A stretch of DNA of 64,000 nt from Candidatus Pacearchaeota archaeon (lineage in GTDB: Archaea; Nanobdellota; Nanobdellia; UBA10117; JAFCGA01): contig JAFCGA010000002.1 in the NCBI GenBank assembly GCA_017608345.1, positions 79,023 to 143,022 of the forward strand, in the 5' to 3' direction. The notes below the pieces were generated by a model. The model saw nothing but the letters and a program-made list of their open reading frames with translations. It had not been told where the DNA came from and ran no database searches. Below, in pieces: positions 3,181 through 10,641 of this stretch (the first letter of the stretch is position 1; each line of letters opens with the position of its first letter). The position numbers and the translations under genes are program-made.

Positions 3181-3575
3181 TGGTTAAGGATAGAGTTGCA
3201 GCAATTATTCTAAACAATAAGAAGATGTTGCTGGTTACAGGTTACGATGAATTATATTATTGGACTCCCGGTGGCAAAATAGAAGAAGGAGAGGCCCATG
3301 AAGCATGTTTAAGACGAGAACTAAAATCTGAATTAAATATAGAAATGACTTCTCTGAAACACTACGGCACCTATAAACTCATCAACAAGGTCGAAAACGA
3401 AATGCAGGTAAATAATTACTATTTGGTTCAATACGAAGGAGAATTTAAACCAGGAGATGAGATTACCAAAACAATTTGGTACTCTAAGCAGAATTTTCTA
3501 GATAAGTCACCTAGAATTTCTGAAGGAGTAGAAACAACTCTAATCCCGAAATTAATACAAGATGGATTTTTCTAG
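3180..3575 (+). CDS. NUDIX hydrolase
   Basis: Nudix box GGKIEEGEAHEACLRRELKSELNIE. Confidence 0.8.
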   Translation: MVKDRVAAIILNNKKMLLVTGYDELYYWTPGGKIEEGEAHEACLRRELKSELNIEMTSLKHYGTYKLINKVENEMQVNNYYLVQYEGEFKPGDEITKTIWYSKQNFLDKSPRISEGVETTLIPKLIQDGFF

Positions 3576-3587
3576 TAATTGAACAAT

Positions 3588-3620
3588 GATAGATTCAAAG
3601 ATCTGAATAGCATAATATAA
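3588..3620. repeat. 3'-flank arm of the 23S rRNA processing stem (pairs with 6532-6560)
   Basis: gatagattcaaagatct (3588-3604) is the exact reverse complement of 6544-6560. gcataatataa (3610-3620) is the exact reverse complement of 6532-6542. Confidence 0.8.
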
Positions 3621-6531: not shown

Positions 6532-6560
6532 TTATATTATGCAAGATCTTTGAATCTATC
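6532..6560. repeat. 5'-flank arm of the 23S rRNA processing stem
   Basis: See 3588-3620. Confidence 0.8.
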
Positions 6561-6661
6561 AATTGAATATCAATTATTCAATTACATTGTTCTCGAGCCG
6601 AGAAAATCTCAGTTCGAGTAAACTGTACAAAATCAACGAAGATTCTGAACAGAAAGTAAAG

Positions 6662-6846
6662 TGGACCCGGAGGGATTTTCAAGCTACAAAGTTGCCGAAG
6701 GTATATTCGGAGCGACGAAGTCGCGTAGTAAAATACCTTTTCTTTGGGCTACCTTACACCTTTCTTTTTCTAAAAGAAAGGGGCAGTTTGAACCCCCAGC
6801 CTCCTGCATGCAAAGCAGGCGTTCTACCGGGTTGAACTACAGGCCC
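6662..6846 (-). tRNA. tRNA-Ala(UGC) in the 16S-23S spacer, with an inferred 111-nt insertion (about 6676-6786) in the T-loop
   Basis: The sense strand reads GGGCCTG TA GTTC..GAAC G CCTGC TT TGC AT GCAGG AGGCT GGGGG TTCAAA [111 nt] T CCCTC CGGGTCC A. The acceptor closes with the G3:U70 Ala identity pair. Confidence 0.8.
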
Positions 6847-6964
6847 ATAGTTTTAAGACAGATTGGTCGATTTATAAGGTTTTTCTTTGGGCCACTTATC
6901 GCGAACCGAAGTTCGCGATCTGTTCGTCCGCGTACGCTTGGAATTAGCGTACAAACATGAGTAT

Positions 6965-6981
6965 AAGTAGATGAATAGCTT
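6965..6981. repeat. 3'-flank arm of the 16S processing stem (pairs with 8730-8745)
   Basis: aagtagatgaatagctt versus aagctattcatctact form 16 complementary bp bracketing the 16S gene. Confidence 0.75.
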
Positions 6982-7653
6982 AACCTTCTTTGAGTATTAA
7001 TCAGGATACTTGCAAGCAAGTATCCTGATTTTAAAAGGAGGTGATCCATCTGCAGGTTCCCCTACAGATACCTTGTGTTGACTTCGCCCGCCTCGCTGAA
7101 CCAGGATTCGACTTAACCAAGAAGTTGAGCCTCATCCCAACCCAACTCGGTTGGCGTGACAGGCAGTGTGTGCAAGGGCCAGGGACACATTCACCGCACG
7201 ATGCTAACGCACGATTACTAGGGATTTCGTTTTCACGAGGGTGAGTTGCAACCCTCGATTCGAAAAGATTGAATTTAAGGGATTGGCTTCTCCTTTCGGA
7301 GTTGCAGCCCGTTGTTTCAACCATTGCTTGCCGCGTGTAGCCCAGAGGATTCGAGGCATACTGACCTACCGTAGCCTACACCTTCCTCTCCCTTTCGAGA
7401 GCAGTCCCTTCAGTGTGCTTATTCTCAATGAGAATAGTGGCAACTGAAAGCGTAGGTCTCGCTCGTTGTCTGACTTAACAGAACACCTCACGGCACGAGC
7501 TGACGGCGGCCATGCACCATCTCTCAGCGCGTCGAGTGAGCCATTCAGGCTGACCTTCATTCTGCTGTCGCTTCTGGTAAGGTTCCGGGCGTATAATCCA
7601 ATTGAACCGCAGCACCCACCCCTTGTGGTAGCCCCCCGCCAATTCCTTTAAGT

Positions 7654-7698
7654 ATACTGTAGCTACATTTCTCTAATATTTGTAAGAAAATATAGCAA
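7654..7698 (-). other. 16S insertion 1 (45 nt, putative intron) splitting GGCTGAA | ACTTAAAGGAATTGG
   Basis: The conserved block is contiguous in ordinary archaeal 16S but interrupted here. Boundary is +/-2 nt. Confidence 0.7.
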
Positions 7699-7817
7699 TT
7701 CAGCCTTGCGACCGTACTCCCCAGGTGGCCTGCTTAACGACTTCTCTCCGACACTGCATGCTCACGAAGAACATGCAGCACCTAGCAGGCAGCGTTTACG
7801 GCTAGGACTACGAGGGT

Positions 7818-7882
7818 TATTAGGGCTCTGGAAAATAGTTTTCTTTTTCCAGGGTTTTTCTTTTTAAAAAAAGAAAAAGCCT
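7818..7882 (-). other. 16S insertion 2 (65 nt, putative intron) splitting GGATTAGAT | ACCCTCGTAGTCC
   Basis: The interrupted block is the 785-806 'universal primer' region. The insert folds into two hairpins: TTTTTCTTTTT/AAAAAGAAAAA and CTGGAAAA/TTTTCCAG. Confidence 0.75.
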
Positions 7883-7980
7883 ATCTAATCCTCTTTGATC
7901 CCCTAGCTTTCATCCCTGACCGTCAGACCCGTTCTAGTTAGACGCCTTCGCCGCTGGCGGTCCTCTGGGGATTAAAACAA

Positions 7981-8071
7981 TGTAACTGCACTTTTTCGCT
8001 GCTTTGCAGCAAGTAAAGTAGTTTCTTTTGGGCTACCTTACACCTTTTCTTTCCTAAAGAAAAGGGGCAGT
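7981..8071 (-). other. 16S insertion 3 (about 91 nt, putative intron) splitting GAGCGGTAAAA | TTGTTTTAATCCCCAGAGGACC
   Basis: It interrupts the conserved GGTAAAATCCTGTAATCC-type block and carries a module shared with the tRNA-Ala insertion. Confidence 0.7.
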
Positions 8072-8235
8072 TTTTACCGCTCCCCCCAGAATACCTCTAA
8101 CTCCTCCCGGTCTCAAGCTAAGCAGTATTTTCAGCACGCCTGACAGTTGAGCTGCCAGATTTCACTAAAGACTTACTTAGCCGGCTACGGATGCTTTAGA
8201 CCCAATAAACGTGACCACCACTAAGGGCGCCGGGA

Positions 8236-8266
<31 letters not shown>

Positions 8267-8729
8267 CCCTTTATTCCTGAAGCGTTTTGGACTCCAGAAA
8301 AGCAGACGCAAAAAGCGCCTGCACGTAGGATTCCCCCATCACGCTTGCGCGCATTGTGGAGTATTCAGAACTGCTGCACCCCGTAGGGCTGGGAGCCTTA
8401 TCTCAGTCTCCCTCTCAGGGCTAGGACTCTCATCCCCCTTACAGATCTTAGGTTTGGTGAGCCGTTACCTCACCAACAGCCTAATCTGCCGCCAACTCAT
8501 CCTATGGCGCCGAAGCTTTGGATAAAAGCGCATTCCAGCCTCTTTTATCTATCGGGAATTATCTTCAGTTTCCCGAAGTTATGCCCGACCATAGGGTAGA
8601 TTATTGACGTGTTACTGAGCCTTTCGCCATGATTTCTCATAGACTTGCATGTCTCATGGATCCTACTAGCAGTGGTCTCCCGCAGGATAAACGGGAATTG
8701 TGATCGCATTAAAATAGAATTGGCTATTA

Positions 8730-8745
8730 AAGCTATTCATCTACT
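8730..8745. repeat. 5'-flank arm of the 16S processing stem
   Basis: See 6965-6981. Confidence 0.75.
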
Positions 8746-8835
8746 AATTCATACCAATTTCTAACTGGTATACATAACAAACACAAATCCGACAAAAGTT
8801 GTCTTCACGTGTGCAATTCTATTGTAGAACTAGCC

Positions 8836-10498: not shown

Positions 10499-10641
10499 TG
10501 CAGGGGACAGGGTTCGAACCTGCGTAGGCACTAAGCCACTGGGTCCTAAACCCAGCCCGTTCAATCGCAACCAACGCTAAGCTATCTTCTTTCCGCCAGC
10601 GCTTTCTTAAAGGGCTGCTTTGACCACTCCGGCACCCCTGC
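10499..10641 (-). tRNA. tRNA-Leu(UAG) with an inferred 57-nt insertion (about 10561-10617) in the D-loop
   Basis: GCAGGGG TG CCG GAGTGGTCAAAG [57 nt] A CGG G CTGGG TT TAG GA CCCAG, followed by a long variable arm, GCAGG TTCGAAC CCTGT CCCCTGC A. Confidence 0.75.

Follow-up and report, generated by a model that had tools for sequence, protein, structure and literature searches.

The interrupted tRNA-Ala gene

The window analysed here, a stretch of 64,000 nucleotides, carries an archaeal rRNA gene cluster on its minus strand, in which the 16S gene (8698-7036) and the 23S gene (6543-3609) are separated by a spacer containing a partial tRNA match. The genome is that of a tiny uncultivated DPANN-type archaeon, represented by a 1.05-Mb assembly of 15 contigs (designated C1, C2 and so forth) that is 88% complete and has a G+C content of 36-40%. 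The other 38 genomes of the order measure 0.3-1.2 Mb, sizes that are typical of DPANN archaea. The 16S gene spans 1663 nt (window 7036-8698), compared with the 1478 positions of its model. Elsewhere in the window, a 143-nt tRNA gene with a large insertion (10499-10641; Rfam, 43.8 bits, model positions 1-71) is read by ARAGORN as tRNA-Leu(UAA) with a 51-nt intron.

The spacer match can be parsed as a tRNA-Ala(UGC) gene in two pieces. Exon 1 (6846-6787, minus strand; 60 nt, positions 1-59) supplies the 5′ strand of the acceptor stem, the D arm, the anticodon arm with UGC at 6812-6810, the 5′ strand of the T stem and the T-loop bases UUCAAA; its sequence is GGGCCUG UA GUUC AACCCGGUA GAAC G CCUGC UUUGCAU GCAGG AGGCU GGGGG UUCAAA. 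Beyond a 111-nt insert (6786-6676, minus strand) lies exon 2 (6675-6662, minus strand; 14 nt), U CCCUC CGGGUCC A, which comprises U60, the 3′ strands of the T and acceptor stems and the discriminator A, with no encoded CCA. Joined at the predicted junction (...GGGGGUUCAAA-UCCCUC...), the exons form a perfect 74-nt cloverleaf with a G3:U70 pair (6844 and 6665) that ARAGORN calls as tRNA-Ala(tgc). The joined sequence also aligns end to end and without gaps with the uninterrupted tRNA-Ala(UGC) of six relatives, in which the T-loop is TTCAAAT or TTCGAAT; in several of them, the 23S gene comes after the uninterrupted tRNA-Ala. The first-pass annotation had proposed that the cloverleaf closes once 6676-6786 is removed and had cited the G3:U70 pair as support for this parse, and both proposals hold, with the coordinates exact.

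By our estimate, a downstream 12-nt segment would complete the T and acceptor stems by chance, with G-U pairs allowed, with a probability of about (6/16)^12 at any one position and of about 0.002 across 300 positions. On the unspliced DNA, the Rfam tRNA model covers positions 8-63 only (35 bits). An alternative 94-nt parse that ARAGORN offers for the intact DNA (6754-6847) was rejected, as it has a mismatched acceptor stem, lacks G3:U70 and is not colinear with the orthologues.

The insert is preceded by AAA and ends in AAAA, and these A-runs would by themselves allow the junction to be placed anywhere from 56/57 to 59/60. The bulge-helix geometry described below assigns it to 59/60, the position that had been suggested initially and one that also agrees with the orthologues. 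The age of the interruption can be judged from an order-wide set of 39 genomes, in which the source genome is the only one of its family. tRNA-Ala matches run through position 60 in at least 10 of these genomes, whereas the match in the source genome ends at 60, which shows that the 111-nt insert was gained in this lineage.

Structure of the splice junction

An unconstrained minimum-free-energy fold of the 185-nt precursor (-61.9 kcal/mol, z = -2.1) retains the T stem along with the acceptor, D and anticodon arms. Next to the T stem it places a 3′ bulge (A A U60), followed by the helix U54-A57(A58)/(U)UGAA, which a 1x1 loop separates from the helix CUGC/GUAG. In this fold, the H helix is formed by U54, U55, C56 and A57 (6792-6789, minus strand) with UGAA (6681-6678) near the 3′ end of the insert. 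The last two bases of the insert and U60 (6677-6675) form a 3-nt bulge that adjoins the T stem and contains the predicted 3′ splice site, so that the 3′ side of the motif occupies 6681-6675 on the minus strand. The inner helix h′ pairs CUGC (6786-6783, minus strand) with GUAG (6687-6684), and its counterpart in a related copy within tRNA-Phe is GCUGC/GCAGC. The predicted 5′ splice site (6787/6786) lies in the small internal loop (1x1 or 2x2) between H and h′.

Because this 5′ site falls outside a clean 3-nt bulge, the junction does not contain the strict hBHBh′ motif (3-nt bulge, 4-bp helix, 3-nt bulge). A motif of the relaxed class (hBH, HBh′ or BHL) is nevertheless present in the unconstrained fold, with the T stem as h, AAU as the bulge and UUCA/UGAA as H. 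With a canonical 3′ site and a relaxed 5′ site, the motif is of the hBH type.

The T arm has a 5-bp stem and a 7-nt loop, as does the anticodon arm. In the canonical 37/38 geometry, the first four loop bases form the 4-bp helix and the cuts fall after the sixth loop base and before the last (PMC6379350). Moved to the T arm, this published geometry would place an intron exactly at 59/60, and this position may thus be viewed as the T-arm structural twin of canonical 37/38. The same arrangement recurs among 18 T-loop introns of the genome (see below): an H helix of 3-4 pairs, formed by positions 54-57 and the intron bases that precede the last two, is possible in 16 of them, and in 15 the minimum-free-energy fold leaves the bases of the 3′ bulge unpaired.

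Splicing enzymes and the proposed pathway

The genome encodes a single tRNA endonuclease gene, EndA (contig C6, 48847-49578), whose 243-aa product contains both the N-terminal and the catalytic domain (PF02778 and PF01974; 97 bits). Its Tyr/His/Lys triad aligns with those of NEQ205 and M. jannaschii EndA, and among relatives of solved structure the N. equitans alpha subunit and the M. jannaschii alpha4 enzyme come closest (both about 1e-28). The protein has a 68-residue N-terminal extension with 18 lysines in the first 48 residues, and does not have the six-residue insertion seen in NEQ205 ahead of the catalytic His. Since a search for a beta subunit or a second EndA-like gene returned no further PF01974 match in the genome, even at E ≤ 10, the enzyme, of the one-unit alpha type, would be expected to assemble as a homotetramer. 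Homotetrameric alpha-type EndAs are classically restricted to strict motifs, and cleavage of relaxed ones is known for (alpha-beta)2 and epsilon2 enzymes and for EndAs that have a specific loop (L1, L2 or L3). Kaneta et al. (PMC5829648) noted alpha4-type enzymes in DPANN lineages whose tRNA genes are heavily disrupted and whose predicted tRNA sets are incomplete. An RtcB ligase is also encoded (532 bits).

The spacer gene appears to be the only source of its tRNA within the 88%-complete assembly. There, BLAST at word size 7 found no second tRNA-Ala 5′ exon, and a scan for UGC anticodon arms found the spacer tRNA-Ala as the only tRNA-like one; none of the 15 Rfam tRNA matches in the genome is an uninterrupted tRNA-Ala. 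An intact tRNA-Ala(UGC) gene elsewhere, together with a lack of any expressed spliced product from this locus, had been named at the outset as the observation that would mark it as a pseudogene, and no such gene was found in the assembly, although its 88% completeness leaves room for a second copy beyond it.

We consider it highly likely that the locus is a working tRNA-Ala(UGC) gene, interrupted at 59/60 of its T-loop by a 111-nt archaeal protein-spliced intron that is cut by EndA and joined by RtcB. In the precursor, the T stem would serve as the outer helix, and pairing of U54-A57 with UGAA near the 3′ end of the intron would leave the last two intron bases and U60 as the 3-nt bulge. The 5′ cut would fall after A59, two bases past the 4-bp H, in the internal loop closed by CUGC/GUAG. 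The resulting relaxed hBH bulge-helix-bulge would rest on a 5-bp stem and 7-nt loop, exactly as that of a canonical 37/38 intron rests on those of the anticodon arm. The lone EndA would then cleave both sites, RtcB would ligate the exons and probably circularise the intron, and RNase P and RNase Z would trim the ends before addition of CCA. Cleavage and ligation of this precursor are what we infer from the orthologues, the junction fold, the presence of EndA and RtcB genes and the lack of another tRNA-Ala(UGC) in the assembly, which together favour the original suggestion of a non-canonical intron in a functional gene.

Two features count against this pathway: the 5′ site has no clean 3-nt bulge, and the sole EndA is of the one-unit alpha type without the NEQ205 insertion. 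The same features, given that this type of enzyme is thought to require strict motifs, would be expected if the precursor were cut or nicked and left unligated, or if the insert were removed without EndA and RtcB, such that a two-piece tRNA is held together by its acceptor and T stems. In such a molecule, however, the 3′ exon would be held by the 7-bp acceptor and 5-bp T stems alone; RtcB is encoded, and heavy disruption of tRNA genes in DPANN archaea has been connected with one-unit EndAs (PMC5829648), so that we regard this alternative as very unlikely. Whether an EndA of the one-unit type can cut relaxed motifs is a question for which the tRNA-Ala precursor is a clean substrate. To our knowledge, a two-piece tRNA of the nicked, unligated kind has no precedent.

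In principle, a different class of intron might also occupy the site. The chloroplast trnA(UGC) gene of the 16S-23S spacer harbours a group II intron of several hundred nt in its anticodon loop, and the Haloferax volcanii tRNA-Trp intron, of about 105 nt, combines the canonical position and a strict BHB with a C/D box guide RNA. The present gene resembles the former in being an interrupted tRNA-Ala(UGC) of an rRNA-operon spacer, here with a predicted protein-spliced intron in the T-loop, and the latter in having an unusually long archaeal tRNA intron, here without the canonical position, the strict BHB or the C/D box guide. A length beyond that of typical archaeal tRNA introns and a conserved internal structure would both suit a self-splicing group I or group II intron, or an intron containing a guide sRNA such as a C/D box RNA. 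However, a group I or II core would need far more than 111 nt; even at E ≤ 10, no Rfam family, those of the ribozyme cores included, matches 6540-7040 beyond noise, and the sequence contains no pair of C box (RUGAUGA) and D box (CUGA). Intron identities of these kinds are thus highly improbable.

Transcription and rRNA processing

Upstream of the tRNA-Ala gene is a promoter-like element (6890-6870, minus strand), composed of an A-rich BRE-like segment CCAAAGAAAAACC (6890-6878) and a TATA box TTATAAAT (6877-6870) at -31 to -24. It is nearly identical to the element at C1:89533, and a TATA motif of this kind, starting at -33 to -29, is found at 24 of 37 tRNA genes in the genome. Given this tRNA-type TATA box at -31, the tRNA-Ala may have its own promoter and need not rely on the 16S transcript, and transcription of the tRNA, perhaps jointly with the 23S gene, may start between the 16S gene and the tRNA. 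The segment 6878-6890 was also considered as the remnant of a third partial copy of the repeat module described below, and the better match is to the A-rich, BRE-like portion of a tRNA promoter.

The processing stems of the two rRNAs flank this unit. The 3′ arm of the 16S stem (6963-6981, minus strand; paired with 8730-8748) lies upstream of the promoter-like element, and the 5′ arm of the 23S stem (6544-6561, minus strand; paired with 3587-3604) lies downstream of the tRNA. A scan of both stems for a strict 3-4-3 BHB (helix, 4 bp and bulges of 2-4 nt) gave only imperfect candidates. The 23S stem (window 3560-3608 and 6544-6600) consists of two long helices and a small hairpin, AUUGA-UAU-UCAAU, on the 5′ strand, with no 3-4-3 BHB.

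The idea, raised from the sequence at first inspection, that splicing of the tRNA is coupled to rRNA processing is an inference to which the TATA box at -31 and the lack of a strict BHB in the 16S and 23S stems lend no help; at most, the two would share an enzyme. The case puts an essential splice, predicted to depend on EndA, inside the rRNA gene cluster.

T-loop introns throughout the genome

The insert in the spacer tRNA is not the lone oddity that it had seemed at first, being one of many T-loop introns in the genome. When the genome was scanned for combinations of T arm and acceptor stem whose T-loop is enlarged by an insert, inserts at 59/60 were found in at least 18 of about 37 delimitable tRNA genes, or about half, on 7 contigs. 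These inserts are 26-141 nt in length, and nearly all of the 18 terminate in GAAAA|U. The affected genes include all three tRNA-Ala isoacceptors as well as Phe, Trp, Val, Asn, Glu and Lys, with tRNA-Ala(CGC) (C1:68192-68493) and tRNA-Ala(GGC) (C1:91007-91352) each containing further introns besides that at 59/60. Examples of T-loop-interrupted genes lie at C1:88612-91352, C2:69861-70354 and C2:95850-97236, and many of the interrupted genes carry introns in the D-loop or at 37/38 as well.

ARAGORN and Rfam detect just 13-15 tRNA genes in this genome, with all alanine tRNAs and others missed by such standard tools, hidden by their introns. The tRNA sets of DPANN genomes of this kind are therefore badly under-annotated.

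The breadth of this pattern bears on whether the spacer gene is alive. A repeat landing in the T-loop could have killed it, with GCA then being decoded by a tRNA-Ala(UGC) in the unassembled 12% of the genome; that the insert is a dispersed repeat, present between genes as well, and that the assembly is 88% complete would accord with this. Yet neither exon has lost a stem or an identity element, the bulge-helix architecture is preserved at the junction and the promoter-like element is retained. Moreover, inserts at the same site occur in at least 18 tRNA genes, all three alanine isoacceptors included, and these cannot all be dead. A pseudogene consequently seems very unlikely.

A second family of T-loop introns, 39-45 nt in length, has the form UGCGAGCG...CGUUCGAGGUAAA, with the direct repeat AAAU on both flanks. 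Copies lie at C2:69861-70072, C2:95850-95969, C10:27342-27500, C1:88840-88978 and C1:109736-109900. In this family, the junction is ambiguous, from 56/57 to 60/61, and the H helix is weak.

The intron as a dispersed repeat

The tRNA-Ala intron has close relatives in tRNA genes of different specificity, as in a paralogous intron family. A 94%-identical copy occupies the same site in tRNA-Phe(GAA) (C1:110504-110628), and 75%-identical copies are found in tRNA-Trp(CCA) and in another tRNA (C1:88612). Partial copies reside in D-loop introns (C6:38356 and C7:11400) and outside tRNA genes (C1:26432, 60765, 167293 and 243182). The 5′ module of the intron also recurs within an insertion in the 16S rRNA gene (8012-8073, minus strand), where it is 84% identical over 63 nt. 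These sequence relationships mark the tRNA-Ala intron as a recent copy of a repeat that is dispersed through the genome and has settled in many tRNA genes as well as in the 16S gene.

Four substitutions and two indels separate the Ala copy from the Phe copy. A compensatory pair, GGUAU/AUACC to GGCAU/AUGCC, accounts for two of the substitutions, and another converts a G-U pair of the inner helix to G-C. The compensated helix (GGUAU/AUACC, 6737-6733 with 6704-6700, within 6700-6737 of the minus strand) encloses the hairpin GCGAC-UUC-GUCGC (6724-6712), and the change from U-A to C-G is seen in both the Phe and the Trp copies. Across four T-loop copies, 88.5% of cells pair in the proposed structure, compared with 51-57% when partners are slid, the structure having been derived from one of these same four.

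A repeat this similar to another could mislead an assembler, and the 94%-identical copy in tRNA-Phe might have been mis-joined into the rRNA spacer of what is a metagenome-assembled genome. The insert is, however, flanked on both sides by unique and correct tRNA-Ala exons with single-base precision, it is distinguished from the Phe copy by the differences given above, and the same design is found in 18 genes on 7 contigs. We therefore find an assembly artefact exceedingly improbable.

The insert offers a dated example of intron gain, since every other family of the order lacks it while a paralogue in its own genome matches it at 94% identity. No shared insertion target sequence is visible 5′ of the element among about 25 copies, and the genome encodes no Y1 (IS200/IS605-type) transposase, considered as a possible mover of hairpin elements. 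In metagenomes, a search for interrupted orthologues gave no match to the exact 34-nt end of exon 1 and none to a degenerate tRNA-Ala T arm followed by a pyrimidine tract.

The 5′ part of the intron contains a module (6781-6736, minus strand) laid out in the manner of class II intrastrand triplex motifs (PMC4666352). The pyrimidine tract CCUUUCUUUU (6781-6772) is followed by an AGA loop and a complementary purine tract AAAAGAAAGG (6768-6759), and then, across a 10-nt spacer, by a mirror-image purine tract CCCAAAGAAAAGG (6748-6736). Elsewhere in the genome, hairpins of this kind are accompanied by perfect mirror tracts: 16 of them, representing 10 different sequences, have such a tract of 10-12 nt at a distance of 8-10 nt downstream, which indicates that the third tract covaries with the hairpin. 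In the type-A copies, to which the tRNA-Ala intron belongs, the mirror is matched at 8 of 10 positions, with CC replacing GG.

BoxC/PIT elements are class II intrastrand-triplex repeats that are dispersed in bacteria (Holder et al., 2015, PMC4666352). The present module shares with them the order of the tracts on one strand (pyrimidine tract, complement and mirroring purine tract), the covariation of all three and the large number of dispersed copies, the likeness being one of sequence layout. BoxC/PIT elements are G/C-rich, extragenic and not associated with introns, whereas the module has A/T-rich tracts and a second spacer of about 10 nt, and is embedded in predicted spliced introns. Purine-motif triplexes are stated not to form in RNA (PMC4666352), and any triplex adopted by the module would therefore be expected in single-stranded DNA.

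Relation to known archaeal tRNA introns

A relaxed-BHB intron at 59/60 in DPANN archaea is of a kind already known. In ARMAN-2 (Ca. Micrarchaeum), an intron of 13 nt interrupts pre-tRNA-Cys(GCA) at 59/60, and its relaxed hBH motif is cut in vitro by the organism's own EndA (Fujishima et al., 2011, PMC3239211). The two cases share a DPANN host, the T-loop position and a relaxed hBH motif on the T stem, with cleavage assayed in ARMAN-2 and predicted from sequence here. They differ in that the present intron is 111 nt rather than 13 nt long, interrupts a tRNA-Ala in the rRNA spacer and is a copy of a dispersed repeat. They differ also in the enzyme: ARMAN-2 uses an EndA of the three-unit epsilon2 type that has a specific loop, and in the present genome a single gene of the one-unit alpha type is found. 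What is notable in the tRNA-Ala case is accordingly the length, the location in an rRNA spacer tRNA, the recent origin from a dispersed triplex-type repeat and the need for a one-unit EndA to cut it.

A parallel to the spread of the intron is offered by the transposed introns of Thermoproteales, which are nearly identical in unrelated tRNA genes and occupy canonical and non-canonical sites (Fujishima et al., 2010, as relayed in PMC4090602 and PMC4033280). As far as those secondary accounts describe them, the two systems have in common intron copies across tRNA genes, multiple introns per gene and rapid, lineage-specific gain. Set against the same accounts, the present system belongs to another superphylum and has another type of EndA, and its copies extend to the 16S gene and to intergenic sites, while related genomes have them immediately 3′ of tRNA genes. 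The mirror-repeat module common to the copies here is not reported for Thermoproteales, and a literature search found no paper on tRNA introns of the present lineages or on the triplex-type module. The tRNA-Ala intron ties tRNA introns to a dispersed triplex-type repeat.

The module in other genomes

A 23-base version of the module matches 22 stretches in the genomes of other species, mostly in records labelled Ca. Iainarchaeum. These stretches lie within tRNA introns, directly 3′ of tRNA genes and downstream of protein genes. In the genomes labelled Ca. Iainarchaeum, the module (CTGCCC..., hairpin and mirror tract) begins 0-3 nt past the 3′ end of uninterrupted tRNA genes, and in other species it also follows the stop codons of protein genes. 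Judging from these positions, 3′ of intact tRNA genes and after stop codons, the module is not intrinsically an intron.

A broader reading of the insert, which we regard as possible though on balance somewhat doubtful, is that an actively spreading, structured element, made up of the triplex-type mirror module and the covarying hairpin, has left a copy here and persists only where the RNA processing of the host excises it precisely. Such excision would be available at T-loop position 59/60, in D-loops and in 16S loops, and related genomes would add the bases that immediately follow a tRNA 3′ end. Splicing by a one-gene alpha-type EndA, thought to be strict, together with RtcB would then shelter selfish DNA in half of the tRNA genes and in the rRNA operon of a 1-Mb genome. 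Conceivably, the triplex-prone DNA may itself drive copying.

A further arrangement of the module is seen in a relative, Ca. Pacearchaeota Meg22_810_Bin_162 (JAFCGM010000001.1, about 143150-143450), in which it alternates with a 26-nt repeat, ATCAAGCAACATTATCATACACCTCT, in a tandem array with an 85-nt period. This genome contains 17 copies of the module, several of which occur in pairs of module and 26-nt repeat.
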